Assembly (NCBI GenBank): GCA_030431255.1
Contig: JAUIJL010000034.1
Location: forward strand, 5,909 to 69,908
Direction: 5' to 3'
DNA from: Thermoanaerobaculia bacterium
Lineage (GTDB): Bacteria > Acidobacteriota > Thermoanaerobaculia > Multivoradales > J023
Length of the DNA: 64,000 nt
Shown: positions 13,497 to 45,371 of the stretch, piece after piece
Numbering within the stretch: the stretch's first letter is position 1
Layout of the letters: the number at the start of each line of letters is the position of its first letter
The notes under the pieces: model-generated
Database searches by the model: none
Told to the model about the DNA's origin: nothing
Seen by the model: the letters and a program-made list of their open reading frames with translations, nothing else
Made by a program: the position numbers and the translations under genes

Positions 13497-13568
13497 GGAA
13501 ATCCTCGAAAGTATCGCCGGAAGTGCGCCGCAACGCGTCAGAAGGCGGGTCTGCGTTATGCTAAACCC

Positions 13569-18888: not shown

Positions 18889-21206
18889 CTAGGCCAATCG
18901 TAAACAGGCCAAGCTCTTTCCGGCTTTCCCGCGAGGGAAGTCTCTTTTTTTCCGCTCTTCCCGCTTCTTTCGCTGCGCTGCTTTTATGGTTCGGGTTCTT
19001 CGGCGTCGTGTCGGCCGGGGTCGTGCGAGCGCAGGAACCCACAGGGGAGGAGACCACTGCTTCTCCGGCTCCGACCGAAATCGAAGCCCTGCCGGCGGTG
19101 GTCAAGCTACGCACCGCGGCCCTTTTGCTCAGCGATCAACAGGGGGGTGAGCTGGCCATGGTCAGCTCCGTGGTCCGCAGACCCGGTGACAAGAAGTCCG
19201 TGGACGCCTTGCTGACGGTGGAAATCGACGACAGCTCCCTGCGGCAAGCGTTGCCCGAAGGCGGGGCGGTTGAGGGATTCGTTTACCTGGTCGACCGGCG
19301 GCTGGAAATTTTCGATTCCGTGAGCGTGGCATGGACGCTACCCGGGCCGCCGGACCGGCCTGGGGTCGAAAAGCCCGGGGGGATTGAGCCCACGGTGCCG
19401 AGCGATGGCTCAGAAGCCTCCGCTGCGGGAGCCCCCGCACCCTCCCCGGAAGCGGAGCCGACCACAGGTCCTGAAGATCCGATGGCGGATGGCTCCACAG
19501 AAGAGGCGAGCCCCGAGGTCCAATTCGCGGATTCAGAAAGTGAAGACTCGGCATCCAAAGACCTGGGCACCGGATTGGATCCCATTCGATTCACCGCGGT
19601 GTTCCCGGCGCCGGCCGCCGGTGACTATGTGTTCAGGATTCTGTTCCGGGCGGGGGAGCATTTCGGCTTGCGATCGGTGCCCCTTTCAATTCCCGCGGCC
19701 AACGATTCGGTGGCCTCGATGTTGGAGCCGATCTTGGAGGTCCCGCCACCGGAAAACGATCGATGGCTCCGGGTATCCCCCGCGGGCCGTGGTACGACCG
19801 CGGATCACCTGCAACCCGGTCTCTCCATCTTGCGTCCGGGCACCCAAGTTCCACTGACCTTTGCTCGATCCTCCAAGTCGGACGTCGGCGAGGTGCGCTT
19901 GGAGCTCGCGCGAGACGGCGAGGCCCGCGTGGTGCCGGTCACGGGCTCGCGCTCCGCCAATGGGCTCTTCCATGGCCAGGTGGACCTTCCCGCGGACCTG
20001 GAAGTCGGCCAATACCAGCTTCGGCTCCTGGCGGACAGCGCTCGACCGTCTCTCACCACCGATGTCCTGGTGCTCGATGATTCGCTGCCTGCGATTCGTT
20101 GGACGGAGCTCGATCGCCTGGCCTCCCACGAGACCACCTTCTCCGGCGAGGCATTGCGCATGCCCGCCAGCGAGCGTCAGCGGGTGATCGCCACCCGCCG
20201 TGAGCTCTTCCAAGTGGTGGTGGATATGGAAGAAGGCGTGGAGACGGCCCTGGCCCGATTCCGGGCCCTTGAGCAATCCCTCGACGAGCAGCTGGGCACT
20301 GACACCATTCCCTTCCTGGAGACCCAGCTCTCCAAGGTGGTCACCCGACTGATGCGCAAAACCCGCAAGCAGCCGGAGCTGACCATGGGGCTCGCTTGGT
20401 TGTTTATGGAGCACGCCGAGCAGCATCGAAGGGGCGGCAGCTACCGGTTCTCCCGCTTGGGCCAGGATATGTCACTCGAAATCCTGCGGAAGCTCGGTGA
20501 GGACTCGAAGAGCAAGACCCTGGCGGCCGAGGCCATGGCGATCTTAGGCGGCTGGTTACAACGACAACGGTTCCTAGATCCTGCGGAAGCGGTCTTGAAG
20601 GAAGCCCTGGCGCTCGAGCCCGAGGCCCCCTATGCCCTGTCGTCTCTGGCGGCGATTTACGAACGCTACGACCGGGTCAAAGACGCGGCAGAGGTTCTGG
20701 AAAAGTTGGTGGAGGTGGAGCCGGATCGTCCCCTCGCTCGGGTGCGGTTGGCCGTCGCCCTGCATCGATTGGGCGAGCTCGAGCGAGCGAGCAAAGAGCT
20801 CGATCGGGTCCTCCAGGCGGCGCAACCGTCCGGAGCCGGCGAGCCGGCGAGCACACCCTGGTGGCTAGCGTTGGCCCATCAAGAAAAGGTCCGGCTTGCC
20901 GTGGATCGCGGGCAGATCCAACAGGCCCAACAAGCTTTAAACGAGGGCTTGAAAGTATTGCCCGAGGATCCGGTCCTACGCTTCGCGCAGCCCTGGCTGC
21001 TGTCGCTCAAAGGCCAACCGGACTCCGCACGACAAGGCCTCTTGGAGCTGGCCTCGTCACCGGACGGCGAGAATGCGCGGAATCGTTTCCACGCTTGGCC
21101 GCGAGCCCATTTGGATGCCTTGTCACGGAAAATGAGACAAACGACCCGAGCGGCGAGCCCCGAGCTGGCGGCCCTTGCCCGCACTGCTTTGGAGAAGACC
21201 CAATGA
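18885..21206 (+). CDS. secreted TPR-repeat protein with acidic disordered linker
   Basis: 773 aa with a TTG start overlapping the upstream stop (TTGA). There is a TM/signal segment, an Asp/Glu/Pro/Ser-rich region, and C-terminal TPR-like repeats (EAPYALSSLAAIYERYDRVKDAAEVLEKLVEVEPD...). Confidence 0.6.
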   Translation: MTRPIVNRPSSFRLSREGSLFFSALPASFAALLLWFGFFGVVSAGVVRAQEPTGEETTASPAPTEIEALPAVVKLRTAALLLSDQQGGELAMVSSVVRRPGDKKSVDALLTVEIDDSSLRQALPEGGAVEGFVYLVDRRLEIFDSVSVAWTLPGPPDRPGVEKPGGIEPTVPSDGSEASAAGAPAPSPEAEPTTGPEDPMADGSTEEASPEVQFADSESEDSASKDLGTGLDPIRFTAVFPAPAAGDYVFRILFRAGEHFGLRSVPLSIPAANDSVASMLEPILEVPPPENDRWLRVSPAGRGTTADHLQPGLSILRPGTQVPLTFARSSKSDVGEVRLELARDGEARVVPVTGSRSANGLFHGQVDLPADLEVGQYQLRLLADSARPSLTTDVLVLDDSLPAIRWTELDRLASHETTFSGEALRMPASERQRVIATRRELFQVVVDMEEGVETALARFRALEQSLDEQLGTDTIPFLETQLSKVVTRLMRKTRKQPELTMGLAWLFMEHAEQHRRGGSYRFSRLGQDMSLEILRKLGEDSKSKTLAAEAMAILGGWLQRQRFLDPAEAVLKEALALEPEAPYALSSLAAIYERYDRVKDAAEVLEKLVEVEPDRPLARVRLAVALHRLGELERASKELDRVLQAAQPSGAGEPASTPWWLALAHQEKVRLAVDRGQIQQAQQALNEGLKVLPEDPVLRFAQPWLLSLKGQPDSARQGLLELASSPDGENARNRFHAWPRAHLDALSRKMRQTTRAASPELAALARTALEKTQ

Positions 21207-22453
21207 GCCCCCAACGCTTCGGCTTGCTCGCAGGCCGCACACGTGACGCCTCGGTGGTCAGGAAACCGTCCGCCGGCACATGGGTTCGGGTCGCTGTGGT
21301 TTTGGCGTGGCTGCTGACCGCTTCGGGCTTGATCGCGGCCGACGACATGATGGTCACAGTGCTGAAACCAGAACCCGGACAGCTGCTCTTCGGCGAGGTG
21401 GAAATCAGCGTCGATATCTTCGAAATCGAAGGCGACCCGTTGAGCACCGTGGATTTCTTCGTCGACGATCAATTCATCGATCGCTTGCGATCCGCGCCGT
21501 GGTCCACCCGCCATGACGTGGGAGATAAGCCGATTCCCCACCGCTTCGAGGTGGTGGCCACCACCGAGAGCGGTAAGACCGCCTCCGCGGTGCTGGTCAG
21601 CAAGGGTGTGCGTGTGGACCTGGAGGTCGAGTCCGCGCTCCAGCAGCTTTACATCACCGTCGAGCGCAATGGTCAGCGGGTGAAGGACCTGACCCGAGAC
21701 CAATTCCGGGTCTTGGACGACGAGGAAGAGCAGCAGATCGTGACCTTCGAAGGCGGCGACGTGCCGATCACCGCCCTGATCATGGTCGATGCCAGCGACA
21801 GCATGCGCGGCTCCCGGTTGCGGTCCGCCCTGGCCGGCGCGTCGGCCTTCGTCGACGGCATGCACGCGTTGGATCAAGCTCAGCTGTTGCTCTTCTCCGA
21901 TCGCATCGTGCACCAAACCCCGTTCACCAATTTTCCCGAGGTGCTCAAAGCAGGGCTCTCGGGGGTCAAGGCCGACGGTGGCACCTCCTTGGACGATCAC
22001 CTCTACGTGGCCATGGAACGCCTCGAAGCCCATCAGGGACGGCGGGTGATCATCCTCTTGTCGGACGGGATCGACGTCTCCAGCCTGCTGCGCATGCAAG
22101 ACGTGGAGCGCAGCGCCCGGCGCAGCCAAGCGCTGATCTATTGGATCCGTCCGGGCACCCTAGCGCCCGGGGGCCGTTTGTACTCGGCGTGGCGCGGAGA
22201 CAAAGAGCACCGCCAAGAGCTCGATATGTTGGAGACCATGGTGACCCGGAGCGGCGGTCGGATCGTCGGCGTGCGCACGGTCAAGGAAGCCCGACCGGCG
22301 TTCGAGAAGATTCTGCAAGAGCTGCGAGAGCAATACGTCATCGGCTACTACCCGACCGTGGATCGCGGCGACGGATCTTGGCACGAGGTAGAGGTCAAGA
22401 CCCGTCAACGGGGTCTGGACATCCGGGCTCGAGAAGGCTACCTCGATGAATAG
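21203..22453 (+). CDS. VWA-domain protein with 'VWFA-related acidobacterial' N-terminal domain
   Basis: The ATG overlaps the upstream stop (ATGA). A signal peptide is followed by LFGEVEISVDI..., RDQFRVLDDEEEQQIVTFEG, and the VWA MIDAS-like DASDSM plus ...SDG motifs. The track ORF begins earlier at 20861, but the coupled ATG 21203 with a signal peptide is the likelier start. Confidence 0.75.
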   Translation: MSPQRFGLLAGRTRDASVVRKPSAGTWVRVAVVLAWLLTASGLIAADDMMVTVLKPEPGQLLFGEVEISVDIFEIEGDPLSTVDFFVDDQFIDRLRSAPWSTRHDVGDKPIPHRFEVVATTESGKTASAVLVSKGVRVDLEVESALQQLYITVERNGQRVKDLTRDQFRVLDDEEEQQIVTFEGGDVPITALIMVDASDSMRGSRLRSALAGASAFVDGMHALDQAQLLLFSDRIVHQTPFTNFPEVLKAGLSGVKADGGTSLDDHLYVAMERLEAHQGRRVIILLSDGIDVSSLLRMQDVERSARRSQALIYWIRPGTLAPGGRLYSAWRGDKEHRQELDMLETMVTRSGGRIVGVRTVKEARPAFEKILQELREQYVIGYYPTVDRGDGSWHEVEVKTRQRGLDIRAREGYLDE

Positions 22454-22628: not shown

Positions 22629-23834
22629 GTGCTCGGGACCTCAGGCCTCGAACGGCCAGGAATGCTTATGCTGTTACGAAAACTTGCCCTTCTTTTGGTG
22701 CTCTTGCTCACCTCCGCCTGTGGCGGCGGTGGCGAGGCCGACCCCGACCCCGCCTCGCTGATCCGGTCTTCGACGGATTCCGAGCCTCGCCCGGCCTCGA
22801 ACGGCAACCCCCAAGGGGCGTCCGGCTCCCGGGGATCGTCCGCCTCGACCTCAGGGGAGCCCGCGGCGACAGAGAGCTCGTCGTTGCCGGTTCGGGTGTA
22901 CCGGGTCAGCGGCCGAGTCGTCGACGATGCCATTTCCACCACCGGCGAGCTGCGGGCCAATGAGGAAGTGGATCTGCGAGCCGAGGAGGAAGGACGCATC
23001 GTGGACCTGCGGTTTGAGGAAGGTCAAGCCGTGCGCAAGGGTGAGCTGTTGGTGAAAATCAACGACGCGGATTTGGTCGCGGAGAAACGCCGCCTAGAGG
23101 TGCAAAGGGATCTGGCCCAGCGTCGGGAGCAGCGGTCGAGGGCCCTGCTGGAAGAGCAGACTCTGAGCCAGGACGTTTACGAAGAGGCCCGAGGCCGTTT
23201 ACAGGTCTTGGAAGCCCAGCTCGAGCAGGTGGCGGCTGAGATCGACAAAACCGAGATTCGGGCGCCGTTCGCGGGCGTCGTCGGCCTACGCCAGGTGTCG
23301 AAGGGCAGCCTGATCAACTCCTCGACCACCATCGCCCGATTGCAGAACCTGGATCCGATCAAATTGGATTTCTCGGTGCCGGAGAAATACGCCGGTGAGC
23401 TGGGCGCCGGCGACACGGTGACCTTCACTGTCAGCGGTAGCGATCGGACCTTTGAGGGCAAGGTGTACGCCGTGGAGCCGCGCATCGATCCCAACACCCG
23501 CACGGTGCAAGTGCGGGCGCGGGCCGCCAACAAGGAATTTGCGCTCTTTCCCGGAGCGTTCGCCAAAGTGCGGGTGGTGCTGAATCGCCAAGACGGCGCT
23601 TTGATGGTGCCCTCCATCGCCTTGATCCCCGGCGCCCAAAGCACCAGCGTGTACGTGGCGAAGGACGGCAAAGCCGAGCGCCGTTCGGTGGACGTGGGCA
23701 AGCGGACCGAGGATCGAGTGCAGATCCTGAGCGGTCTCGAAGAAGGCGACAGAGTGATCGTCTCCGGGATTCAGCAAATGCGCCCGGATCTCGACATCGA
23801 GGTGCTCGAGGCGGCCGAGGAGCCCGCCCCATGA
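22629..23834 (+). CDS. RND efflux periplasmic adaptor (membrane fusion protein), lipoprotein
   Basis: 401 aa with lipobox LLTSACGGG, coiled-coil hairpin, lipoyl and beta-barrel segments typical of HlyD/AcrA-like MFPs (...IRAPFAGVVG..., TVQVRA). Confidence 0.85.
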   Translation: MLGTSGLERPGMLMLLRKLALLLVLLLTSACGGGGEADPDPASLIRSSTDSEPRPASNGNPQGASGSRGSSASTSGEPAATESSSLPVRVYRVSGRVVDDAISTTGELRANEEVDLRAEEEGRIVDLRFEEGQAVRKGELLVKINDADLVAEKRRLEVQRDLAQRREQRSRALLEEQTLSQDVYEEARGRLQVLEAQLEQVAAEIDKTEIRAPFAGVVGLRQVSKGSLINSSTTIARLQNLDPIKLDFSVPEKYAGELGAGDTVTFTVSGSDRTFEGKVYAVEPRIDPNTRTVQVRARAANKEFALFPGAFAKVRVVLNRQDGALMVPSIALIPGAQSTSVYVAKDGKAERRSVDVGKRTEDRVQILSGLEEGDRVIVSGIQQMRPDLDIEVLEAAEEPAP

Positions 23835-26800
23835 CCCTCTACACCCTGAGCATTCGACGGCCGGTGCTGGCGATCGTCATGTCGCTGGTGATTCTGATTT
23901 TCGGTGCCATCTCCTTCAAAGAGCTGGGCATCCGCGAGTATCCCTCGGTGGAGCCGCCGGTGATCACCGTCAGCACCAATTACACCGGCGCCAACGCGGA
24001 TGTCATCGAGTCGCAGATCACCCAGGTGCTCGAGGAGAAGATCAACTCGGTGCCGGGATTGGAGACCCTCACCTCCACCAGCCGCGAAGGCCGCTCGACC
24101 ATCACCGCCGAGTTCAGCCTGGGAGTGGACCTGGAGACCGCCGCCAACGACGTGCGCGACAAGGTCAGCCAAGGGGTTCGCGAGCTGCCGCCGGAGGTGG
24201 ATCCACCGTCGGTCTCCAAAGCCGACGCCGATCGCGTGCCGGTGGTGTTCTTGAACGTCAAAGGCCTCGAGGTGGACGGCAAAGCCCGCAGCCTGCTGGA
24301 GCTCACCGATTTCGCCGACAATGTGCTCAAGGAGCGTTTGCAGACCATTCCCGGAGTCGCCGAGGTGGATATCTGGGGCTCTAAACGCTATGCCATGCGT
24401 CTGTGGCTCGATCCCAATCGCTTGGCCGCATACGGGCTCACGCCGGTGGACGTGCGCACGGTGTTGCAGCGGGAGAACGTGGAGCTGCCGGCCGGCCGGA
24501 TCGAAGGGGTCGACGTCGAGCTGACTGTGCGGACCAAGAGCCGTCTGCACACGGTGCAGGATTTCGAGGATTTGGTGCTCAAACAGGACGAGGGGCGGGT
24601 GGTGCGGCTTTCGGACGTCGGATACGCCGAGCTGGCGCCCGAGAACCTTCGCACCCTCTTGCGGCGCGACGGCATTCCCATGGTCGGAGTGGTGTTGCGG
24701 CCGCAGCCGGGTGCCAATCAAATCGAGATCGTCGACGAGTTCTATCGCCGGGTCGCTCAGGTCAAAGAAGAGCTGCCGAATGACCTGGAGCTGGGCATCG
24801 GCTTCGACATCAGCCAATACATCCGCCAATCCGTCCGAGAGGTCAAGCAGACTTTCTTCATTGCTCTGTCCCTAGTGGTGGCGATCATCTTCCTTTTCTT
24901 GCGGGATTGGCGCACCACCTTGATTCCGGTGCTGGTGATTCCAGTCTCTTTGATCGGCGTGTTCTTGATCATGAACCTGGCCGGGTTCTCGATCAACGTG
25001 TTGACCATGTTGGGCATGGTGTTGGCCATCGGCTTGGTGGTCGACGACGCGATTGTGGTCCTGGAGAATATCTACGCCAAGATCGAGCAGGGCGAGCAGC
25101 CCATGGCCGCCGGTGTCGAGGGCACCCGCGAGATTTTCTTCGCGGTCATCGCCACCACCCTGGCTTTGGTGGCAGTCTTTCTGCCGATTCTCTTCTTGGG
25201 CGGGCTCACCGGGCAGTTGTTCCGCGAATTCGGCGTGACCATCGCCGGAGCGGTGGTGATCTCATCGTTCGCCGCCCTCACGTTGACCCCCATGTTGTGC
25301 ACCCGGCTGCTCAAAAAACGTCAACGCCAACCGTGGATTTATCGCGTCACCGAGCCCTTTTTCCAAGGTCTGACCAGCGCTTACCGCAAGACCCTAAAGG
25401 GCTTCATGGGTGTGCGCTGGTTGGCGCTTCCGATCCTGTTGGTGTCGTTCGCCCTCTCCTGGTGGATCGGCACGGGTCTGCCGTCGGAGCTGGCGCCGAT
25501 GGAGGACCGCGGCTCGATTCGCATCATGTCCACGGCGCCGGAGGGTGCGTCGTACGAGTACATGGACGAGTACATCCAAGACGTGGTCCAGGTGTTGAAG
25601 GAGAAGGTGCCCGAATCGGTGGGTGTGATCGCCGTGACCTCACCCGGCTTCGGCGCCTCGTCGAGCGTCAACTCGGGATTTGTACGGGTCAAGCTCACGG
25701 ACGCCTCCGAGCGAGATCGCTCCCAAAGTGAGATCGCGTCCGCGATCACCGCTGAGCTGAGCGCCAAAACCGGTGCCCGCTCCTTCGTCACCCAACAGCC
25801 GACCATCGGCCGTGGACGTCGCGGCCAGCCCGTTCAATACGTCATCCAAGCCCCGAGCTTCGAGCGTCTGCGGGAGATCCTGCCGGAATTCCTCTCCCAA
25901 GCCCGCGCCGACGAGACGTTCTCGGTGGTCACCGTCGATCTCAAATTCAACAAACCGGAGCTTGTGATCGACATCGATCGAGATCGTGCCCGGGATCTCG
26001 GGGTCTCGGCCCTGGATATCGGTCAGACCCTGTCGGCGGCGTTGTCGGGTCAACGTTTCGGATACTTCTTGAAGGACGGCAAGCAATATCAGGTCATCGG
26101 TCAGCTCTTGCGTGAGAATCGCGACGAGCCCTTGGATTTGGCGTCCCTGCATGTCAAAGGCGGCGACGGCCGTCTCGTGCAGCTCGACAACCTGGTGACC
26201 CTGCGGGAAACCGCCAGCCCGCCGCAGATCTATCGTTTCAACCGCTACGTGTCGGCCACGGTATCCGCCTCGTTGGCGGACGGTCACACCATCGGTGAAG
26301 GCATTGCGGCCATGGATCGGGTGCGCGATCAAGTGCTCGACGACACCTTCCAAACCGCCCTGGCCGGTGAGTCCAAGGATTTCGTGGAATCGGCGTCGAG
26401 CCTGGGTTTCGTCTTCCTGTTGGCCGTGCTGCTGATCTACTTGGTGCTGGCGGCCCAATTCGAAAGCTTCCGCGACCCCTTCATCATCATGCTCACCGTG
26501 CCCCTGGCACTGGCCGGCGGATTTCTCGCCCTCAGCATGACCGGGCAGACCTTCAACATCTTCAGCCAAATCGGCCTGATCATGTTGTTGGGTTTGGTGA
26601 CCAAAAACGGCATCTTGATCGTGGAATTCGCCAATCAACGACGCCTGCGGGGCGATGACATCCTCGAAGCCGCCCAACACGCCGCCGTGGCCCGGTTCCG
26701 ACCCGTGCTGATGACCAGCATGTCGACCATGTTGGGCATCCTGCCGATCGCCCTGGCCCTCGGTGCCGGCTCCGAAAGCCGCCAGTCCATGGGCATCGCG

Positions 26801-26956
26801 GTGATCGGCGGCCTGCTGATGGGCAGCCTGCTGACCCTCTACGTGGTGCCGGCCATGTACACCTACCTGGCGAGCCGCGAGGTCCGCTCCGTGGAGGTGG
26901 AAGAGCTGCAACCCGTTTCCGATGGCCTGGCGGGAGGTCTGCCGGAAACTGCTTGA
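23831..26956 (+). CDS. RND-family efflux permease (HAE1/AcrB-like)
   Basis: 1041 aa with 12-TM architecture and two large periplasmic loops. The N-terminus MTLYTLSIRRPVLAIVMSLVILIFG...EYP is typical. It overlaps the MFP stop (ATGA). Confidence 0.9.
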   Translation: MTLYTLSIRRPVLAIVMSLVILIFGAISFKELGIREYPSVEPPVITVSTNYTGANADVIESQITQVLEEKINSVPGLETLTSTSREGRSTITAEFSLGVDLETAANDVRDKVSQGVRELPPEVDPPSVSKADADRVPVVFLNVKGLEVDGKARSLLELTDFADNVLKERLQTIPGVAEVDIWGSKRYAMRLWLDPNRLAAYGLTPVDVRTVLQRENVELPAGRIEGVDVELTVRTKSRLHTVQDFEDLVLKQDEGRVVRLSDVGYAELAPENLRTLLRRDGIPMVGVVLRPQPGANQIEIVDEFYRRVAQVKEELPNDLELGIGFDISQYIRQSVREVKQTFFIALSLVVAIIFLFLRDWRTTLIPVLVIPVSLIGVFLIMNLAGFSINVLTMLGMVLAIGLVVDDAIVVLENIYAKIEQGEQPMAAGVEGTREIFFAVIATTLALVAVFLPILFLGGLTGQLFREFGVTIAGAVVISSFAALTLTPMLCTRLLKKRQRQPWIYRVTEPFFQGLTSAYRKTLKGFMGVRWLALPILLVSFALSWWIGTGLPSELAPMEDRGSIRIMSTAPEGASYEYMDEYIQDVVQVLKEKVPESVGVIAVTSPGFGASSSVNSGFVRVKLTDASERDRSQSEIASAITAELSAKTGARSFVTQQPTIGRGRRGQPVQYVIQAPSFERLREILPEFLSQARADETFSVVTVDLKFNKPELVIDIDRDRARDLGVSALDIGQTLSAALSGQRFGYFLKDGKQYQVIGQLLRENRDEPLDLASLHVKGGDGRLVQLDNLVTLRETASPPQIYRFNRYVSATVSASLADGHTIGEGIAAMDRVRDQVLDDTFQTALAGESKDFVESASSLGFVFLLAVLLIYLVLAAQFESFRDPFIIMLTVPLALAGGFLALSMTGQTFNIFSQIGLIMLLGLVTKNGILIVEFANQRRLRGDDILEAAQHAAVARFRPVLMTSMSTMLGILPIALALGAGSESRQSMGIAVIGGLLMGSLLTLYVVPAMYTYLASREVRSVEVEELQPVSDGLAGGLPETA

Positions 26957-26978: not shown

Positions 26979-27611
26979 TCAAGCCGGCTCCGCCAACCAC
27001 GACTCTACGGCCACCCGGGTGTCCTGCTCGAAACGGCGAAAGGCCGAAAGTCTCCGCAAGGGCCGGAAGTCGCGGATCAGCTGGCTGACCCGTCGGCGGT
27101 GAAACGCCAGTTTCTTCTTGAATCTGTGATGACGACGGCCTTGGGAGTCGTTGGCCGCCAATAGGCACTGATCGAGGACGTCCTTGGGGTTGGGTAGGCT
27201 GTCCAGCTTCGCGATGCTGGGCAGGGATAGATTCCGCCGGCCATACGGATTATCGGCGGCCATACGGATCGCATCTTCGTCGATCAGTAACCAAGCTTCG
27301 GTCATTCTTACAGGGATAATCGGCACCGTCGGAGGAAGCTCGGGAGCTTCGGCGGCAGCTTTTTTGATCTCGTCAAGCCGTTGTTCGAATGGTTCTCGCT
27401 CAGCGTCACGATGAACAAAAAATAGATCACTGGGAAACTCTTGCTGTGCCCTTCGGAATCGCTCGCCCAAGTCCGTATGGGAGACGAAACTCGGTTCAAG
27501 ATGGGAGTCGGGGGGCAGGATTCCGGCGAGCGTCCATGTGATGATCGGCTGTAGGCTTTCGTCACTGGTCCCGTCGCCGAGCAAGGTCCAACGCAAAGCT
27601 CTATGACTCAT
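26979..27611 (-). CDS. DUF4276-family (Toprim-like) protein, partner of upstream ATPase
   Basis: 210 aa with an acidic N-terminal motif LLGDGTSDE, VHRDAERE and a C-proximal ...PVRMTEAWLL motif that I recall as characteristic of DUF4276. It lies 12 bp downstream of the ATPase gene on the same strand, in a lower-GC segment. Confidence 0.55.
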   Translation of the reverse strand: MSHRALRWTLLGDGTSDESLQPIITWTLAGILPPDSHLEPSFVSHTDLGERFRRAQQEFPSDLFFVHRDAEREPFEQRLDEIKKAAAEAPELPPTVPIIPVRMTEAWLLIDEDAIRMAADNPYGRRNLSLPSIAKLDSLPNPKDVLDQCLLAANDSQGRRHHRFKKKLAFHRRRVSQLIRDFRPLRRLSAFRRFEQDTRVAVESWLAEPA

Positions 27612-27623
27612 CGGAGGGCCGGC

Positions 27624-29024
27624 TCATTCGGTGGGAAAGGGCAACCCGAGCTGTTGGGGCAGATTTCCGCTCATCTTGAAGTAAGGGTGGAGATGACCGA
27701 GGCTCAGCCTGGAGGCCTCGCCCGCGGCTTTGCCGCGCCAGGAATTCGTCGGCACGAGGTATTCGGCGAAGCGCCCCAGGGTATATCCATCTTCGCTATT
27801 TTGGCCCGAAGAACGAAGGCGACGGGAGACGAAGACCAGATCATCAGGATCGATTTGGTCGACGACTTTCGGCGAGTGGGTATTGACCATCACTTGGCGC
27901 AACGGATTGTCTTCTCCGATGGGGAAATCGGGGTCACAAGCGATCTCACGCAGGAGATCGAGCATCGCCGGGATTCGGCTGGGGTGGATGCCGTTTTCCG
28001 GCTCCTCCAAACAAATCAAACCTTGGGCATCGGGATCTTCCAGCAGGGTCGCCAGGGCGACGAAGCGGAGGGTACCGTCGGAGAGGGCTCGCGCGGGCCG
28101 GAACACCCCGTCGTCTCCCAAGATTTCCAGGGTCAGGGTCTCGGTGCGCTCGTCGTCTACTACCCGCAGCTCGCGGACGTCGTCGATCAGCTCTGCTAGA
28201 CGATTGGCGAGCCGAGCATAGGTTCGACCCTCCTGTTTTTCTTGTTTCCGCAGTCGCTCGAGGGTCGACGGCAAGTGAGCGCCCCGTTCGTCGAGCTCTT
28301 GGGGATCAGCGTAATAGGACGGCGCCCGCATGGCAGACGGCTCGAGCAAGAGGGTGCGCCAGGATTCCATCTCCCGGTGGACCGCGAGCAGGGTGGGGTA
28401 GTCGCTCAGGGCCAAAGCTCCGAGCACCGTGCGCGAGGATTTGGGCGCGGCCACCCGGCGGCCGCCGTGACCTTCCTGATGGACTTGGATTTGCGGCGAG
28501 CCGTTCTCCATTGAGGTGGAGATGAAGGGCGCAGTCCTGCGGCCTTGGATCACCGACTGCTGAAAATCGGTCGAGGTCTCGAAGCCGATGCTGCGCCGCG
28601 CTTCTTTCTGCGTGATCGGGACCAAGCTCTCCTCGATCAGAACCAAACGTTCCGGGGTTTCATCACGGGTCCGCTCGAAGGCGACCGTGTAGCGGACCGA
28701 AGAAGTAGCGGCTTCCGCCAGAGTGCCGAAATCGTCTTCCACCTGCCTTCGCACCAGCAGATCGGCGACGATGCGGATCTCCGGGGCCTCATAGTCGCCG
28801 ACCGACGAAAAGAGGCTGCGCGCGTCCACTCGGCCTCGGGTTTCTCGAAGGCCTTTGACCGCTTCCATGATCGGGTGTTGGGTCAAGAGATGTAGAAAGC
28901 GGATGACGTCGAATAGATTCGACTTGCCGGCGGCGTTGAGGCCGGCAATACACGTGAACGGGCCGAATCGAACGTCGACGTCGAGCAGGTTCTTGAAACC
29001 CTGGATTCGGATCCTGGTGAGCAT
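27624..29024 (-). CDS. AAA/ABC-type ATPase (AAA_15/AAA_21, SMC-like N-terminus), OLD/Gabija-ATPase-like
   Basis: 466 aa. The N-terminus ITRIRIQGFKNL...GLNAAGKSNLFDVIRFL is a Walker A of the SMC/RecF-like ABC ATPase type. A C-terminal signature-like LSDGTLRFVALATLL and a Walker B LICLEEPENGIHP are also present. Confidence 0.75.
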   Translation of the reverse strand: MLTRIRIQGFKNLLDVDVRFGPFTCIAGLNAAGKSNLFDVIRFLHLLTQHPIMEAVKGLRETRGRVDARSLFSSVGDYEAPEIRIVADLLVRRQVEDDFGTLAEAATSSVRYTVAFERTRDETPERLVLIEESLVPITQKEARRSIGFETSTDFQQSVIQGRRTAPFISTSMENGSPQIQVHQEGHGGRRVAAPKSSRTVLGALALSDYPTLLAVHREMESWRTLLLEPSAMRAPSYYADPQELDERGAHLPSTLERLRKQEKQEGRTYARLANRLAELIDDVRELRVVDDERTETLTLEILGDDGVFRPARALSDGTLRFVALATLLEDPDAQGLICLEEPENGIHPSRIPAMLDLLREIACDPDFPIGEDNPLRQVMVNTHSPKVVDQIDPDDLVFVSRRLRSSGQNSEDGYTLGRFAEYLVPTNSWRGKAAGEASRLSLGHLHPYFKMSGNLPQQLGLPFPTE

Positions 29025-29111
29025 GGGGGAATCCTATCAAGGGTGAGACCATGAAGCTCGGTAGCCGCCCACCCTGTAGCTCCGTCGCTGAGGACGGCGT
29101 ATGCTACGCCC

Positions 29112-31493
29112 ATGGCGAGGCCGGGAAAGTCAGTCAGGTCAGAAAATTCAGTGAGGTCGGCGAAGGCAGGTGGCGACAGCGCAGGAAAAGCTCTGCGCCC
29201 TTGGTGGGTTTGGCTCGGGGCTCTGCTGACCTCGGCGTGGCTCTTGCGGGCGCTCCACGGGTTCGGAGGAGCGGGCGCCCACGACCTACGAGGTTATGGC
29301 TCGGACTTGGCGATGGCGTGGCTGTGGCTGGTGCTCGGCGCGTGGGCCTTCCGGAAATTCTGGTTGGGGCTGTCGGCTGCGCTGCTTTGGACGGCGATTC
29401 AGGTGGCCGCCTACGAGCATTTGACGGCGTTGGGCGCGCTGCCACGTCTGGCCAATATCCACTACCTTTGGGATCCGATGTTTTTTCGCGGCTCGGTGAT
29501 GCCGACCCTCTCAGCGCCCGCGACTTTGGGCATGTTGGGGCTGACCGCGGTCGCCGCCTGGATCGCCTACCGATTGAATCGCGGACGGTTGACCGCCGGC
29601 GGCTGGGCGCCTTGGATCATCGGTGTGGCTCTGGCGATCGTTTTGGGTCTGTGGCCGATCTCTGAGCACGCTCCGGGTTGGCGGCAGGCCAACGCCGTAG
29701 AGCTGGGGCTCAGGGAGCTGGGCGGTGGGCTCGTGGGCGCCGGCGGGACCTCCGAGACGACGGTGGATCCGCGGATCGGTGCCGAGCTGCCGCCGGACGA
29801 CACGGGGCCGGATCTTTCAGGTCGCCTCCTGCTGCCGAGAGCCGAGGGCAAGAACGTGCTGTTGATCTTGGTGGAGAGCCTCGGTGGCGGGGCCTTTCCG
29901 TCGTTGCTCGAATCCCAAGGCCTTGACGAGCCCGGTCTCTTGCCCCAAACCGACGCGCTTTTCCGCCGGGGCTGGGTATATTCCAACTTCATCAGCATGC
30001 AGCGACAGACCCAACGGGGCACCTATGCCTTGCTCTGTGGTCGCGCGCCCCGTCTGGCCGGTGGGCTGTCGAAGATGACCGAGCTGATCAAACAGCGGGG
30101 CGAGGAAGTGCTCGATTGCTTGCCGGAGCGGCTGCGTCGCGCCGGTTATCAAACCGCCTATTTGCAGGCGGCCCACCTGCCGTTTTCCCTCAAGGACCAA
30201 TTCATGCCCAAGGCGGGTTTCGAGCGGATCCTCGGCGAGCGTTGGTTTACGGACGCCCACATCTGGGGCAAATGGGGCGTGGACGATAGGACATTTTTCG
30301 AAGGCGCTTTGCAGACCGTGGAAGAGATGGACGCGGAGCCACAGCCCTACTTCCTCACCCTGCTGAATGTCGGCACCCACCATCCCTATGCCGTGCCCGA
30401 AGATCACGAGTCGTCCCATGAGAAGCATTCATTCCCTTGGTCCATGTCGTACCTCGACGGTCAATTGGTGGATTTCTTGGGGCAGCTCAGGGATCGCGGC
30501 TTGCTTGACGATACGGTGGTGGTGCTGACCTCGGACGAAGCGGTGGGCCTGGATCGGGGACAGGGTGATGCTGCCCAGATGCTGGATCAGGCCTGGGGTT
30601 TCCTCGGGGTGCTGACCCCCGACGGCAGCAGCGGCTGGGTGACGGAGCCCTACGCCCAAAGCGATCTACCGCTTTCCTTGCTCGATCTGCTCGGCGTGGC
30701 GTCGGACCTGCCGGACGATGGGGATTCGCTGCCGTTTTCGGGCCGCAGCGCATTCCGTGAATACAGCAAGCCGCGCACCCTGGCATTCGGCAATGTGTTC
30801 TTGAATCGGGTCGCGGGCGTCGGGCTCGACGGTCGGCTCTACGGCTGTAAAGTGGACGCTTCGGAATGCACGAAATGGCGCGTGCCGGCGGGCAAGCTCT
30901 TCTCCGACGAGAGGTCCGAGGAGCCGATCGCCGACGGCGAGCTGGGTTTCCTCTTTCGCCACGTACAGTCGAGTGATCGCTTGCCGAGATCCAGTCGGAG
31001 CCAGGGTTTCGGCTCGCGGTCCAACGGTGCAAAACCGATCGCTTACGAATTCGGATTGGCGCGTTTGACGTCGATCTCATCTTCCGACGCGTTTCTTTCC
31101 GAACGACCTTGGATCTTCGACGGACAGCGGTATACCGTGCCTCCGAGGTCTTTGGTGGAGGTCGATGTGCAAGTGAAGCTGACCGGTTCTTCGCCGGATG
31201 GGATCCGAGCCCGTCAGGAGCTGATGGTGGCCGACGGGCCGGTCCTCTTCGGCGAGGAAGCGTCGTTGATCGATGGGCAAAGCGTGCGGTTCCATGCCGT
31301 TTATCGGGTGGGGGAGGAGCCGCTACGGCGATTCGAGTGCCGGTTCGGGGTGGTCGACCGCGGAAAAGGGTCCTGGAAATTGACCTTTGAGCGGGCTCGA
31401 TTGCGAATCACGCCTTTGGTCGGTGAGCAGGGTGCTGGATCGGCGGATGGTGTTTTAGTGAGCGGCAGCGCGAGCGTCCGAGGAGGGAGCTGA
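29112..31493 (+). CDS. membrane-anchored sulfatase / LTA-synthase-like (alkaline phosphatase superfamily) protein
   Basis: 793 aa with about 5 N-terminal TM helices, followed by a sulfatase-like domain (VLLILVESLGG..., NVGTHHPY). Confidence 0.7.
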   Translation: MARPGKSVRSENSVRSAKAGGDSAGKALRPWWVWLGALLTSAWLLRALHGFGGAGAHDLRGYGSDLAMAWLWLVLGAWAFRKFWLGLSAALLWTAIQVAAYEHLTALGALPRLANIHYLWDPMFFRGSVMPTLSAPATLGMLGLTAVAAWIAYRLNRGRLTAGGWAPWIIGVALAIVLGLWPISEHAPGWRQANAVELGLRELGGGLVGAGGTSETTVDPRIGAELPPDDTGPDLSGRLLLPRAEGKNVLLILVESLGGGAFPSLLESQGLDEPGLLPQTDALFRRGWVYSNFISMQRQTQRGTYALLCGRAPRLAGGLSKMTELIKQRGEEVLDCLPERLRRAGYQTAYLQAAHLPFSLKDQFMPKAGFERILGERWFTDAHIWGKWGVDDRTFFEGALQTVEEMDAEPQPYFLTLLNVGTHHPYAVPEDHESSHEKHSFPWSMSYLDGQLVDFLGQLRDRGLLDDTVVVLTSDEAVGLDRGQGDAAQMLDQAWGFLGVLTPDGSSGWVTEPYAQSDLPLSLLDLLGVASDLPDDGDSLPFSGRSAFREYSKPRTLAFGNVFLNRVAGVGLDGRLYGCKVDASECTKWRVPAGKLFSDERSEEPIADGELGFLFRHVQSSDRLPRSSRSQGFGSRSNGAKPIAYEFGLARLTSISSSDAFLSERPWIFDGQRYTVPPRSLVEVDVQVKLTGSSPDGIRARQELMVADGPVLFGEEASLIDGQSVRFHAVYRVGEEPLRRFECRFGVVDRGKGSWKLTFERARLRITPLVGEQGAGSADGVLVSGSASVRGGS

Positions 31494-31495
31494 GG

Positions 31496-33163
31496 ATGGC
31501 GGAGACGAAGGCAAGGCTAACGTCCGGATTGGATCCCAGGTGGATCCCGGCTTCGGTGGCGGCGGGTCTCGCGGCGATCTTTATCTACCGGTTCAGCCAA
31601 CACCTCTTTCTCTCCGACGACGCCTTCATCAGCTTTCGCTACAGCCGGCATTGGGTCGAGGGTTTGGGTCTGGTGTGGAATCCGGGCGAGAAAGTAGAGG
31701 GCTATACCAATTTTCTGTGGATGGCCCTGATGGCGGCCGGCCTTCAGCTTGGAATCGAGCCGGAGATATTCGCGCCCTTGATGGGGCTGTTGTCGGGTCT
31801 GGGTGTGCTGTTCCTGGTCTCCAAGCTCAGCCCGCCGGAATCCCATTGGCGTTGGCTGACGCCGGGCCTGCTGGTCACCAACTATTCCTTCATCGCGTGG
31901 TCGTCCGGTGGGCTGGAGACCCAGATGTTCTCGTTCTGGGGTTTAGCGACCGTGGTGCTGGCGGTGAGCGGGGCTCATCCCTGTCTTTTCGGCCTGTGTG
32001 GAGCGGCGGCGGTTTTGACCCGCCCGGAGGGTTTGCTGTGGGCCGGCGCCGCCGGTCTTTGCTGGCTGATCGACCTGTGGCGACGGCAGATGTCGTGGCG
32101 TCGCGCGGTTTGGTTTCCGGTCGCTTTCGTCACGCCGGTGGCCACGCACCTGCTGTGGCGTGTCGACTATTACGGCTTTTGGCTTCCCAACACCTTCTAC
32201 GCCAAAGTCGGTGGCACCGAGTGGGCCGACGGTTGGACCTACCTCTCCTATTTCCTGAGCGAATATCGGATCGAGCTGTTATTACCTTTCGCGCTCTTGG
32301 CCCTACGCCATCCCGTCACGGAGGGTTCGGCAGGCTTGAGCTGCCGATGGACCCGCTCCATCTTGATCTCCGCCTTGATCGTTGGGGTTTACGGCGTTTA
32401 CGTGGTTTCCGTGGGCGGCGACTTCCTGGAATTCCGCTTCATGGTGCCGTGGCTGCCCTACTACTTTTTCTTGGTCGTGGCGGGCGCGCGGCAATGGTGG
32501 GTGTGGCTCGCGCCGGAACGGCTGGGCTGGTCTCCGCGGGTGGCGGGTACGGTGCTCGTGGCCTGGGTGGTGGTGTGGGCGGCCGCGGCTTGGGGCGAAA
32601 GCGAGGCCGAGCAACCCAGGGGGTTCGAGGCGGTGCCCGCCATCGGACACTATGCCAATTTCCGCACCGAGCAGGGGTTGATGCTCCGTCAGTGGGTGGA
32701 CGAAGGCCTGCTGCCGGAGGATTTCAGGGTGGTGACCGGCGGGGCCGGTGCCTTACCCTACTATTCCCGGCTTTACGTGCTCGATCGCAGGGGGCTGAAC
32801 GACGTCGAGGTCGCCCATTCCGACTACGTGCCCGGCAAGGGTTATGTGGGGCATCGGCGTTGGGCCTCGCCGGGCCTGATCCGGCGCCGGGAGATGACCG
32901 CGGTGATCCTCGGCCATTTGATCGTCTACGACCGCCGGGTCACGACCCCCGACCAACAGCTCGAATTCGGTCTCGGCAAATGCGAGCAGTACTCGGCCGG
33001 CGCTGAGGTGCCTGAGGATCATTTACGCTTGGAATGTCGCTGGATGGACGAGAACCTTTATTTGCTCTTCGGCACCAATTTGGATCCGGCTGCTTTTCAG
33101 CGACAGATGGGACACCTGAGGCCGTGTTGGCCCGGTGGAATCCCGACTCAACCGTCGAAATAA
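31496..33163 (+). CDS. polytopic membrane protein, GT-C-like glycosyl/arabinosyl-transferase candidate
   Basis: 555 aa starting 3 bp after the sulfatase stop. It has the first-loop motif DDAFISFRY..GLVWNPGEKVEGYTNFLW and about 12 TM helices. Confidence 0.55.
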   Translation: MAETKARLTSGLDPRWIPASVAAGLAAIFIYRFSQHLFLSDDAFISFRYSRHWVEGLGLVWNPGEKVEGYTNFLWMALMAAGLQLGIEPEIFAPLMGLLSGLGVLFLVSKLSPPESHWRWLTPGLLVTNYSFIAWSSGGLETQMFSFWGLATVVLAVSGAHPCLFGLCGAAAVLTRPEGLLWAGAAGLCWLIDLWRRQMSWRRAVWFPVAFVTPVATHLLWRVDYYGFWLPNTFYAKVGGTEWADGWTYLSYFLSEYRIELLLPFALLALRHPVTEGSAGLSCRWTRSILISALIVGVYGVYVVSVGGDFLEFRFMVPWLPYYFFLVVAGARQWWVWLAPERLGWSPRVAGTVLVAWVVVWAAAAWGESEAEQPRGFEAVPAIGHYANFRTEQGLMLRQWVDEGLLPEDFRVVTGGAGALPYYSRLYVLDRRGLNDVEVAHSDYVPGKGYVGHRRWASPGLIRRREMTAVILGHLIVYDRRVTTPDQQLEFGLGKCEQYSAGAEVPEDHLRLECRWMDENLYLLFGTNLDPAAFQRQMGHLRPCWPGGIPTQPSK

Positions 33164-35484
33164 CCGGCCACGTGGCGTAGGCGAACGCCGAGACCGCGGG
33201 CCTTGACGTTGACCTTGCGCCAGCTGCCGTCGCCCCGAGACGGGTCCGCGTAGTAGCCGATGGCGACTTGGTTTCGCAGGTCCTCGAGGATCTGGGTGAA
33301 GGCGTCGGTCACTTGATCCACGCCCGTAATCTCCACTACATCGCCACCGCTATCGTGAACGGTCCGTTCGAGCATGGAGAGCTGTTTTTGGGTTTCACCG
33401 ATCGGTCGCCAGCCCGTGGACGGCACGAAGTCCTTCTCGTGGTCCCTACCCTCCCGCAAGCGCAACCAATAGAGCTGGATTTGGCTCCGGCGGATGGCCT
33501 CGCGGACGGATTCCATAGGCACGGCGCTCATGATGTCGAAGCCGTCGGAGAGCACGATCACCACTTTGCGGCCGTGCTCGGGCTGAAGGGCGTCGGTGGA
33601 GAGGAATAGGAAGTCGAAGAGGGCGGTGCCGCCGCCCGCCGAGGTGCGATCCAGGCGCTCGGTCAGATCGTGGAGCGTGGCGTCTTCGGCGTTGACGAAG
33701 GAGCTGACCCCCCGCAGACGGTCGGCGGCGATCACCAATCGCGCGCGGTCGTGGGGTGTCATGCTCTGCATGAACGTTTTGGCGCCGGTCAAGGCGCTGG
33801 ACATACGCGGGCCGACCATGCTGCCGCTGGCGTCGATCAAGAGGGTGGCGGTGAACGGCACATCCCCTTGCTCGAAGGTGACGATCTTCTGTTCCTTCCC
33901 CTCATCAAAAACCTGTAGATCCGAGGCCTTGAGCTTCAAGCCCTTTCGACCGAAGCGCGAGGGGGTCACGTAGAGCTCGGTCAGCTCCAGGTCCAGAGTT
34001 TCGTCGACCCGGATCGGTTGGCCCGTGGTTTCGTCGTAGTAGACCTGCCGGCTCGTTTCGATCGCCGGTCGGTGCTCCGTGGGTTGGTTGGCGGGACCGT
34101 CCGCCGTCGGCAGAATGGGGTCCTTGACCTTTTTCACGTAGCTCGCCCGGACCGCGGTGCCAGTGGACGCAGGCGAGGCATCGCCGGTCGGCTCCTCCGC
34201 GACCTCTGCCACTTGAGGGGGGGCGTCGAGCGGTAAGAGCCTTCGCCACAAACCCGCACACCGAGACGAGCCGCTTTGTTCTCCCGCTTGAAGGCGTCGT
34301 GCACCCGCGCTCAAGGCCGGTGCACGGAAGCTCGCACGTTTCGCCAGCCGGGTGCGATTGGCTTCCATCTCGGGCAGGGGTCCTCGCAAATAGCGAAGGC
34401 GTGGGGTTTCGCCGAAGTCCGAGTCCCATGCGTCGAGCAGCGCGCGGCTGCGCGGATCGGGCCGGTGGGTGGCCCGCCGGTGGAGGTCGATCTCCATCAG
34501 CTCGAAACGTTTGTTTTTCGGATAGGTCGCTTGGGCCTGGTCCAAGATCTCGCCGGCCCGGCGCCACTTTTCGCGTTCCATTGCCAAGCGAGCCGCCTCC
34601 TGAAAAGCCACGTGGTGGACCCAATCCTCGATACGCGTGTGTCGTTCGATCAAGGTGTCGAGCAGCTCGGCGGCCTGATCTTCCTTGCCCTGTCGAGCGA
34701 GGTTGACAGCTAGGCGTAGGGTGATGTCCCCTTGCAGAGGTTTCAGTCGATGGAGGTGCTCCAGATCCCGGAGTGTCTTGCGATAGAAGCCACGCTTTTC
34801 GGAGATCATCGACCGCAGATAACGGGCTGCGATGTGGTCGTCCTCGTAGTTGACGGCCAGGTCGAGCGCGGAGTCGGCCGAGTCGAAGAGATTGAAGTAT
34901 CCGGAATCCCAGATCCGCTCAGCCATGTGGGTCAAAAAATCCGCCGCTTCCGAAAGCGCCTCCGGCGACCGCCCCGTGTCGTCCACATGGGCTTTCATCA
35001 AACCTTCGAGACGTCGGGCGTTGGCTTCGAGACGGCTGAAGTGTTTCCGGCCGAGGTCGTAATGCCAGGCGGAAAGGTGCAACATGGCGGCCGGCAGAAT
35101 CGCTCCCTGGCCGGAGGAGGCGATTCTCCTCAGGGACTCGTATTGCTCGCCAGAGAAGCATTTGTCGCTGTGGTAGAGCAAATACTCGTAGTGGGAGAGG
35201 AGCTGCACCTCGCCGATCCCCGGAGCGTCGGCCCAGCGCTCCAGAATACCCAAATAGGCGTCGCGTACGACCAGGGAGTCCTGACGGTAGGTGAGCGCTT
35301 GGTTGGCGTAGTAGTAATGCCAGAGGGCCACGGTCTCGTCGCTGGACGGTGGAATCTCTACGCTCTTCTTGGGCACCGATCTGATTGCCAAGAAGTCATT
35401 GCCTTGACCGGCAGCGTCTTCGGGAGCCGAGCCCATGATGCAAGCTGTGACGAGCAGACTGCTGAAGATCTTTGAGCAACGCAT
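33148..35484 (-). CDS. secreted TPR-repeat protein fused to C-terminal VWA ('VWFA-related acidobacterial') domain
   Basis: 778 aa with a signal peptide and long TPR-like helical N-terminal half. The C-terminal half has LKASDLQVFDEGKEQKIVTFEQ, the MIDAS DASGSM, SDGFD, and ends ...GYYAD..GDGSWRKVNVK as in the other paralogs. Confidence 0.7.
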   Translation of the reverse strand: MRCSKIFSSLLVTACIMGSAPEDAAGQGNDFLAIRSVPKKSVEIPPSSDETVALWHYYYANQALTYRQDSLVVRDAYLGILERWADAPGIGEVQLLSHYEYLLYHSDKCFSGEQYESLRRIASSGQGAILPAAMLHLSAWHYDLGRKHFSRLEANARRLEGLMKAHVDDTGRSPEALSEAADFLTHMAERIWDSGYFNLFDSADSALDLAVNYEDDHIAARYLRSMISEKRGFYRKTLRDLEHLHRLKPLQGDITLRLAVNLARQGKEDQAAELLDTLIERHTRIEDWVHHVAFQEAARLAMEREKWRRAGEILDQAQATYPKNKRFELMEIDLHRRATHRPDPRSRALLDAWDSDFGETPRLRYLRGPLPEMEANRTRLAKRASFRAPALSAGARRLQAGEQSGSSRCAGLWRRLLPLDAPPQVAEVAEEPTGDASPASTGTAVRASYVKKVKDPILPTADGPANQPTEHRPAIETSRQVYYDETTGQPIRVDETLDLELTELYVTPSRFGRKGLKLKASDLQVFDEGKEQKIVTFEQGDVPFTATLLIDASGSMVGPRMSSALTGAKTFMQSMTPHDRARLVIAADRLRGVSSFVNAEDATLHDLTERLDRTSAGGGTALFDFLFLSTDALQPEHGRKVVIVLSDGFDIMSAVPMESVREAIRRSQIQLYWLRLREGRDHEKDFVPSTGWRPIGETQKQLSMLERTVHDSGGDVVEITGVDQVTDAFTQILEDLRNQVAIGYYADPSRGDGSWRKVNVKARGLGVRLRHVAGYFDG

Positions 35485-41133: not shown

Positions 41134-41210
41134 AGACCCGTAGCTCAGTTGGTTAGAGCGCTACGTTGACATCGTAGAGGTCAGCGGTTCAAGTCCGCTC
41201 GGGTCTACCA
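41134..41210 (+). tRNA. tRNA-Val (anticodon GAC)
   Basis: Folded by hand: acceptor AGACCCG/CGGGTCT, D-stem GCTC/GAGC, anticodon stem CTACG/CGTAG with loop TTGACAT, T-arm AGCGG-TTCAAGT-CCGCT, discriminator A, encoded CCA; 77 nt. Confidence 0.9.
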
Positions 41211-41256: not shown

Positions 41257-41333
41257 AGGCGCTTAGCTCAGCTGGTTAGAGCGCTGCCTTCACACGGCAG
41301 AGGTCAGCGGTTCAAGTCCGCTAGCGCCTACCA
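41257..41333 (+). tRNA. tRNA-Val (anticodon CAC)
   Basis: Folded by hand: acceptor AGGCGCT/AGCGCCT, anticodon stem CTGCC/GGCAG with loop TTCACAC, same T-arm as the neighbour, encoded CCA; 77 nt. Confidence 0.9.
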
Positions 41334-45133: not shown

Positions 45134-45208
45134 GCCCGATCCGCGAAGCGCTCGCACAAGAAAAGGGTCCCGTTTTTTAGGACCCGGACGAATTGAAAAT
45201 CTGATTTT

Positions 45209-45371
45209 CCCGCGTGGTTCGGGTGGCTCGCCAAGTACCTAGAACCAACATTTTGCTATCGGGAGTCTTAATGCGCGTAATCTGTGCCAGCCTCGCTCGA
45301 ACGAGGACGCTGAGGATTCGCGACGCGGACACCCACCTGGTTGGAACCCGGTTCTAACCACTTCGCGCGAC
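45209..45371 (+). ncRNA. ssrS: candidate 6S RNA (ssrS) in the 320-bp zapA-rny spacer
   Basis: Positional inference: ssrS commonly follows zapA. By hand, 45211-45224 (CGCGTGGTTCGGGT) can pair with 45347-45369 (ACCCGGTTCTAACCAC-TTCGCG) as a closing stem around a ~120-nt interior containing a small hairpin CCTCGCTCGAACGAGG (45291-45306). No covariance-model test was possible. Confidence 0.25.

Follow-up and report, generated by a model that had tools for sequence, protein, structure and literature searches.

The 64-kb stretch of contig JAUIJL010000034.1 from a Thermoanaerobaculia bacterium analysed here (the window, to whose first letter all positions refer) encodes 35 proteins, two of which form a minus-strand operon made up of a gene for an ATP-binding cassette (ABC)-type ATPase and a gene for a small Toprim-like protein, with 33 others around them. 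In the list of open reading frames (ORFs) the ATPase gene comes first, at 27624..29024 (466 amino acids), and the small-protein gene follows at 26979..27611 (210 amino acids), the operon junction being a spacer of 12 bp (27612..27623) from the stop codon of the former to the start codon of the latter. An RND pump gene (23831-26956, plus strand) converges on the small gene with a gap of only 22 bp, and a sulfatase-family gene (29112-31493, plus strand; Pfam Sulfatase, 6e-29) diverges from the start of the ATPase gene. The 87-bp divergent intergenic region (29025..29111) between ATPase and sulfatase genes is presumed from its position to hold the operon promoter; a consensus scan around the operon for promoters and terminators found no sigma-70-like or terminator-like site. 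An earlier reading of this DNA from its letters alone (the sequence-only reading) had given the same ORF coordinates, strand, spacer and placement between a convergent pump gene and a divergent sulfatase gene, and the ORF list agrees with it throughout. It had also called the module visibly lower in GC than its flanks, which is weakly supported for the pair as a whole, as its GC content is 0.604 against a window mean of 0.620 (standard deviation 0.025 among windows of the same size) and 19% of same-size windows have a GC content as low or lower. The description does fit the small gene alone, which stands out with a GC content of 0.58 and a third-codon-position GC content (GC3) of 0.645 against 0.73–0.82 in the neighbouring genes; the GC3 of the ATPase gene, 0.732, is inside the range of those neighbours.

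Both proteins match PADLOC models of HEC-01 (Hma-embedded candidate 01), which Payne et al. described as an ABC ATPase plus TOPRIM pair embedded in Hma systems and having an OLD-like metal site (bioRxiv 2024.01.29.577857). The ATPase matches the HEC-01A model PDLC04184 at 4.5e-106 and 353.6 bits (residues 1-394 on positions 1-397 of 464), and the small protein matches the HEC-01B model PDLC04210 at 2.2e-20 (residues 50-203 on positions 63-210 of 217), all six of its PADLOC matches being HEC-01B models. Judged by these model matches and by same-strand adjacency 12 bp apart, rather than by the system rules of PADLOC, the pair is assigned to the catalogued candidate anti-phage system HEC-01. The typing of the two genes as HEC-01A and HEC-01B draws on their ORFs, Pfam and PADLOC matches, AlphaFold2 models, Foldseek searches and ratios of nonsynonymous to synonymous substitution (dN/dS).

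The ATPase matches Pfam AAA_21 over the full profile (4.1e-25) and AAA_15 (2.5e-14), and its N-terminus is similar to SMC_N/AAA_23, in keeping with the SMC-like ABC/AAA ATPase that had been proposed from the sequence. In an alignment of 35 homologues (55–86% identity) its motifs, all encoded on the minus strand, are conserved as follows: G28, N30, G33, K34 and S35 are invariant in the Walker A or P-loop GLNAAGKS (residues 28-35; 28920..28943), all eight residues are invariant in the ABC signature-like LSDGTLRF (residues 314-321; 28062..28085), E340 and the catalytic E341 are invariant in the Walker B motif LICLEE (residues 336-341; 28002..28019), and H383, S384 and P385 are invariant in the H-loop NTHSP (residues 381-385; 27870..27884). 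The motifs named in the sequence-only reading, namely GLNAAGKSNLFDVI for Walker A, LSDGTLRF, LICLEEPENGIHP for Walker B and TEAWLL in the partner, were all found when the translations were checked. The AlphaFold2 model of the ATPase has a predicted local distance difference test score (pLDDT) of 85.9, and the closest folds found by Foldseek are Septu/retron PtuA, SMC heads and Rad50 (E about 1e-11 to 1e-12). The C-terminal half, including the Walker B region, aligns with the ATPase of phage P2 Old (hhalign probability 90.5%). The protein belongs to the OLD/AAA_15-21 group of ABC ATPases and is intact. A housekeeping RecF/RecN-like or SMC ATPase held in conserved synteny, which the sequence-only reading had named as a finding that would overturn it, was looked for and rejected: the models score far under their cutoffs (recF 26.6 bits for a cutoff of 172, SMC 12.6 bits for a cutoff of 729) and the genomic context varies across phyla, with unrelated flanking genes.

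The assignment of the smaller partner is less direct. Its match to Pfam DUF4276 (PF14103) reaches 26.1 bits (E 1.2e-5) over residues 47-121 only and does not reach the gathering score of 30.2; its relatives score 17–23 bits, and most members of the family have no precomputed PF14103 match. The earlier description of the partner as a DUF4276/Toprim-like protein thus stands insofar as the protein is DUF4276-related and Toprim-like, while formal DUF4276 membership falls under the threshold, and from these scores the protein is best described as a divergent sister branch of DUF4276. A word-indexed search for the family gave 743 matches, with full-length relatives of about 210 amino acids, and an exhaustive profile search gave 2,370 representative clusters with E values up to 1e-3, 887 of them at 1e-30 or lower. 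Assemblies were searched for the exact small protein of the window, and none contained it. The clade, which we define by the pattern D-x3-D / HRDAE / PVRMTEAW, comprises about 900–2,400 representative clusters. All of the best 150 representative relatives are standalone proteins of 192–269 amino acids. The AlphaFold2 model (pLDDT 94.3, predicted template-modelling score 0.90) has a core of four beta-alpha units (beta1 5-12, beta2 37-44, beta3 63-67, beta4 95-98) followed by a helical C-terminal domain; the beta-alpha-beta topology of this core is compatible with Toprim. The top four Foldseek matches in the Protein Data Bank (PDB) are to the C-terminal Toprim plus helical region of the class 2 OLD nucleases BpOLD and XccOLD (6NK8, 6NJV, 6NJW); they span the whole length and are weak, with E values of 0.02–0.04 and template-modelling (TM) scores of 0.41–0.46. 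Searching PDB sequences with the family profile (hmmsearch) gave no meaningful match, and hhalign of the profile against P2 Old gave no signal (probability 0.2%), the target here being one sequence and too thin.

Residues conserved across the family are D13-G14...D17, F65-x-H67-R68-D69-A70-E71, R78, E81 and P100-V-R-M-x-E105-A-W-L-L, and three groups of them stand where metal ligands would be expected by comparison with BpOLD, whose two-metal site consists of E400, E404 (i+4), D455-x-D457 and T506-x-E508 (PMC6755086). The first is DGTSD (D13...D17; 27561..27575, minus strand) at the end of beta1, a region left out of the HEC-01B match, in which D13, G14 and D17 are at least 90% conserved and which we propose to correspond to the Toprim Glu and the i+4 acidic residue (BpOLD E400/E404). 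The second is HRDAE (H67-E71; 27399..27413, minus strand) after beta3, the proposed equivalent of the Toprim DxD, with H67, R68, D69 and A70 invariant and E71 at least 90% conserved. The third is the family hallmark PVRMTEAWLL (P100-L109; 27285..27314, minus strand) after beta4, in which P100-M103 and E105-L109 are invariant and T104/E105 are the proposed metal-B ligands (BpOLD T506/E508). The conserved acidic residues D13, D17 (i+4) and D69-x-E71, with T104-E105, match the spacing of the BpOLD ligands. From this spacing and the predicted secondary structure, rather than from a three-dimensional superposition, we infer that the two active sites may be equivalent.

Variation within the family follows the same positions. 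At position 13 aspartate and glutamate alternate (DG..D in 105 sequences, EG..D in 5, DG..E in 2 and EG..E in 1). Of 120 relatives, 117 have HRDAE as the second motif and 2 have HRDAD. Three distant relatives (24–32% identity), each with an ATPase gene immediately upstream, have E at position 13 together with HRDAD, HTDAD or HGDED, and E105 is invariant in them. Because of the ligand-like acidic spacing, the D/E alternation and the canonical E/DxD of distant relatives, we take the small protein to be a nuclease subunit of Toprim-like type that belongs to a branch beside DUF4276, its nuclease activity being putative. On the strength of the HEC-01A and HEC-01B matches, the Foldseek top four and the BpOLD ligand spacing, the resemblance to a split OLD-type ATPase-nuclease drawn in the sequence-only reading seems well founded.

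The two genes travel together. When about 185,000 genomes, one from each species, were scanned, the pair family was found at no fewer than 529 species-level loci in more than 12 phyla, among them Myxococcota, Nitrospirota, Chloroflexota, Cyanobacteria, Planctomycetota, Acidobacteriota, Spirochaetota, Proteobacteria, Bacteroidota, Armatimonadota and Poribacteria. Wherever there was room for it (82 of 82 loci) an ATPase homologue lies directly upstream on the same strand; in 47 of 85 loci the two reading frames share 4 nt where the ATPase gene stops and the small gene starts, and almost every junction is in the range of -17 to +34 nt. The pairwise identity matrix of the ATPase correlates strongly with that of the small protein (r = 0.82, Mantel p = 0.001). 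The immediate neighbours are heterogeneous, mostly with metabolic domains, and flanking genes are unrelated between phyla; no conserved third gene was found, any other flanking family being limited to 5 of 66 loci at most. The two genes form an autonomous module and are inherited together.

Within its own lineage the pair has been stable. In a relative (L001), 15.6 kb are collinear with the window, with a nucleotide identity of 84.7%, and the amino-acid divergence of the pair is similar to that of the flanking genes (RND pump 97.5% identical, ATPase 91%, a 555-amino-acid protein 88%, VWA proteins 85–88%, sulfatase 84%, small protein 83%). A second relative (L084) has an ATPase 86% and a small protein 79% identical and keeps the sulfatase side, which in that comparison is the only side of the locus conserved in the clade; downstream of the pair, in place of the RND pump, it has a 218-amino-acid ORF and then an IS3-family transposase (rve/HTH_Tnp_1), in the region 12847-14105 of its own numbering. 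The dN/dS of about 0.05 for the ATPase and 0.06–0.09 for the small protein indicates strong purifying selection. The synonymous divergence (dS) of the pair from L001 is 1.1–1.3, above the 0.5–0.75 of the flanking genes, values that are rough with dS near saturation; weaker codon bias, seen as lower GC3, or past recombination may account for it. A scan of metagenome contigs with the neighbouring sulfatase protein for close relatives lacking the pair (an empty site) found nothing. Since it is collinear with its flanks in L001 and both genes are under purifying selection, the pair is an old, functional and vertically transmitted resident of this lineage and no fresh island, and the recent insertion of a low-GC island is ruled out by the GC statistics together with that collinearity.

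What such a pair might do is drawn here by analogy with OLD, Gabija and especially PARIS (AriA/AriB), an analogy from which complex formation, trigger, substrate and defence phenotype are all taken. An oligomer of the ATPase would bind the Toprim subunit and keep it inactive until the ATPase senses a cue associated with infection, for example a protein of the phage or an aberrant nucleic acid. Binding or hydrolysis of ATP would then release or open the nuclease, which would cut nucleic acid, either DNA or tRNA, through a two-metal site formed by D13, D17, D69, E71 and T104/E105, and the cleavage would stop phage replication, possibly by abortive infection. We put the probability that this HEC-01-type operon is an OLD/PARIS-like ATPase-gated nuclease serving in defence at about 0.62.

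Several observations weigh against that reading. The published record on the anti-phage activity of HEC-01 is mixed: the original test in E. coli K-12 gave no protection (bioRxiv 2024.01.29.577857), while a representative from a cold seep is reported to have given E. coli B protection from one or more of T7, T5 and T4 (PMC12881386). In the clade the canonical Toprim Glu is Asp, giving D...DxE instead of E...DxD. The association with defence islands and mobile elements is weak. Among the other proteins of the window the PADLOC models found no other defence family save a weak radical-SAM/viperin-like match, and across the family known defence families are rare among immediate neighbours, at most 2–3 of 119. 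The pair is inherited vertically in the clade, as are its housekeeping-type neighbours. A scan of IMG/VR viral contigs with the family motifs found no relatives, and the small-protein family occurs in 3 of 72,556 plasmid records, all of them replicons of 0.6–1.2 Mb. One record labelled as phage holds a relative of the pair (MT836135.1, L090, "Bacteriophage sp.", UNVERIFIED). It has a gene for a RuvB-like protein (ORF 4265-5314 of that record) immediately downstream of that pair and, because this gene adjoins it, is probably bacterial DNA mislabelled as phage. With the link to defence islands and mobile elements weak in the clade and the HEC-01 experiments mixed, rival explanations are hard to dismiss.

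The first of these is a role outside defence, in which the ATPase-Toprim pair would serve chromosome or DNA metabolism, for example repair, recombination or the cell cycle. RecF and RecR, an ABC ATPase working with a Toprim protein, are a precedent for it. Many of the points above would fit it as well: in the clade the pair is chromosomal, vertical and strongly constrained by purifying selection, and neither mobile nor defence genes lie close to it, in other genomes known defence genes rarely adjoin it, viral contigs lack the family and plasmids seldom carry it, and the first HEC-01 test was without phage protection (bioRxiv 2024.01.29.577857). The archaeal OLD-family ATPase Cran1 is a further precedent, showing that proteins of this family can serve outside defence (PMC12796447). 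On the other side, the family is very patchily distributed (no fewer than 529 among some 185,000 species genomes, in more than 12 phyla and with unrelated flanks), which is typical of accessory modules that move horizontally, and the recF, recN and SMC models score far under their cutoffs. The close homologues HEC-01 and Mad3/Mad4 lie within defence systems, and one HEC-01 representative did protect against phage (PMC12881386). We consider a housekeeping role unlikely.

The clade could also be a functionally distinct branch of the ABC-ATPase/Toprim group, as its members are chromosomal, standalone, outside defence islands and vertically retained. Such a branch might act in nucleic-acid processing or genome maintenance in the manner of Cran1, or might act abortively by attacking tRNA in response to a new trigger; both options would depart from typical HEC-01/OLD-like defence by DNA cutting. 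We give this idea a small chance.

A selfish addiction module, in which a Toprim toxin is held in check by the ATPase and the pair persists by post-segregational killing rather than by benefit to the host, seems improbable. The cassette is compact, autonomous and translationally coupled, as such a module would be, and the Pfam text for AAA_21 reads "putative AbiEii toxin, Type IV TA system"; that text is a family label rather than a tested property of the window ATPase. In MADS, deletion of the methylase gene mad5 is lethal unless mad2 or mad3 is deleted too, which implies toxicity linked to the ATPase, and modules of ABC plus TOPRIM occur in toxin-antitoxin and Abi systems (bioRxiv 2026.07.10.737580). 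Against this, plasmids and other mobile elements rarely carry the family, and the pair is stably and vertically retained in the clade with a dN/dS of about 0.05–0.09 in both genes; moreover, behaviour like that of a toxin-antitoxin system and defence by abortive infection can coexist. Equally improbable is that the small protein is no nuclease at all, being instead an inert or differently employed alpha/beta domain such as a nucleotide- or phosphate-binding adaptor with the effector elsewhere or absent, since the replacement of the Toprim Glu by Asp and of DxD by DxE, the sub-threshold DUF4276 score and the missing hhalign signal against P2 Old are set against five acidic positions at the exact BpOLD two-metal spacing, a D/E interchange across the family as expected of metal ligands, full-length OLD nuclease regions as the Foldseek top four, HEC-01B matches at 2e-20 and the OLD-like metal site reported by the authors of HEC-01B (bioRxiv 2024.01.29.577857).

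Elsewhere in the window the gene content includes CarboxypepD_reg repeats, MacB/FtsX permeases and VWA proteins, which together with the closest homologues point to a host of Acidobacteriota-like type. Paralogous VWA-domain proteins, including those encoded at 20861-22453 (plus strand) and 33148-35484 (minus strand) and 38–40% identical in aligned blocks, surround the locus together with TPR proteins, an arrangement that is conserved in L001. A 2147-amino-acid ORF at 53595-60038 (minus strand), with a GC3 under the window norm, matches only AAA_16 (1.9e-9) and NPHP3_N (8e-8) in Pfam, at residues 298-425; its mostly unannotated product resembles a giant STAND-type NTPase, perhaps one of signalling or immune type. 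A full-length 6S (SsrS) RNA gene lies at 45204-45392 (plus strand; Rfam RF00013, 53.7 bits for a gathering score of 46.4), and tandem tRNA-Val genes with anticodons GAC and CAC lie at 41134-41210 and 41257-41333 (plus strand; ARAGORN and Rfam). An ARAGORN "tRNA-???" at 31219-31310 is probably a false positive, as it falls inside the sulfatase coding sequence and has no support from Rfam.

The assignment corrects the affiliation of the pair, which is HEC-01-like and not PD-T4-4-like, and adds a well-delimited and widespread clade to the candidate immune modules that pair an ABC ATPase with a Toprim protein. It also names residues that may be catalytic: K34 and E341 of the ATPase and D13, D17, D69, E71 and E105 of the putative nuclease. 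Modules of this kind can sit outside defence islands and mobile elements and be inherited vertically, so that screens based on islands would miss them. Publications already cover the architecture, the Toprim character of DUF4276 and the idea of a defence function, and the pair represents no new kind of biology.

Among the known systems, PD-T4-4 (Vassallo et al. 2022) shares the two-gene layout of an OLD-type ABC ATPase with a nuclease, and the sequence-only reading had equated the pair with it. This equation fails, as PD-T4-4_B belongs to another nuclease type, having been described as a PD-(D/E)xK nuclease (PMC12137116; bioRxiv 2025.07.10.664194) and also as an HNH nuclease (bioRxiv 2026.07.10.737580) and not as DUF4276/Toprim, and no PD-T4-4 model matches the small protein. 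Gabija was likewise rejected: the GajA models match the ATPase in parts only (E about 1e-11 to 1e-12), and no GajB/UvrD-like helicase adjoins the pair. MADS encodes an AAA ATPase, Mad3, side by side with Mad4, a DUF4276 homologue, DUF4276 and RloB having been formally described as members of Toprim (PMC12065111). The window ATPase does match mad3 models (PADLOC 5.8e-30; NCBIfam MAD3 5e-38). Membership was rejected, as the NCBIfam score is 131 bits for a cutoff of 420, the small protein matches no MADS component, the mandatory mad6-8 are absent from the window and no mad model matches any of its other 33 proteins.

OLD nucleases (P2 Old in class 1, BpOLD and XccOLD in class 2, and GajA) resemble the pair in combining an ABC ATPase with a Toprim-plus-helical nuclease region. 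P2 Old is an inactive tetramer whose Toprim cleaves tRNA once activated (bioRxiv 2026.07.10.737580), and the C-terminal regions of class 2 OLD proteins cut DNA with two metals (PMC6755086). In OLD all of this is one polypeptide, whereas in the window the domains are on two separate ORFs and the best 150 relatives of the small protein are standalone, and we therefore rejected membership of the single-chain classes 1 and 2. The similarity is also remote, with TM scores of 0.41–0.46, no sequence-level PDB match and GajA models at about 1e-11 to 1e-12 on parts of the ATPase.

PARIS is, like the pair, a split system with an AAA_15/21-type ABC ATPase sensor adjoining a separate Toprim effector; AriA holds AriB and frees it on sensing a phage protein, and AriB cleaves tRNA (PMC11464382). 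Membership of PARIS was rejected, since the "AriA" matches are to generic AAA_21/AAA_15 profiles and the small protein has no AriB or DUF4435 match: the AriB effector is DUF4435, in contrast to the DUF4276-like protein here. PARIS also differs in lying often on phage satellites, while the small-protein family is absent from IMG/VR viral contigs. With its tRNA-cleaving nuclease first sequestered and then released, PARIS is the best mechanistic analogue. With HEC-01 the pair shares the order of an ABC ATPase gene followed by one for a small TOPRIM-like protein, and both window proteins match its models. It differs in that the window locus and its clade are standalone instead of being embedded in Hma or MADS, and in that the small protein of the clade has D...DxE in place of E...DxD.

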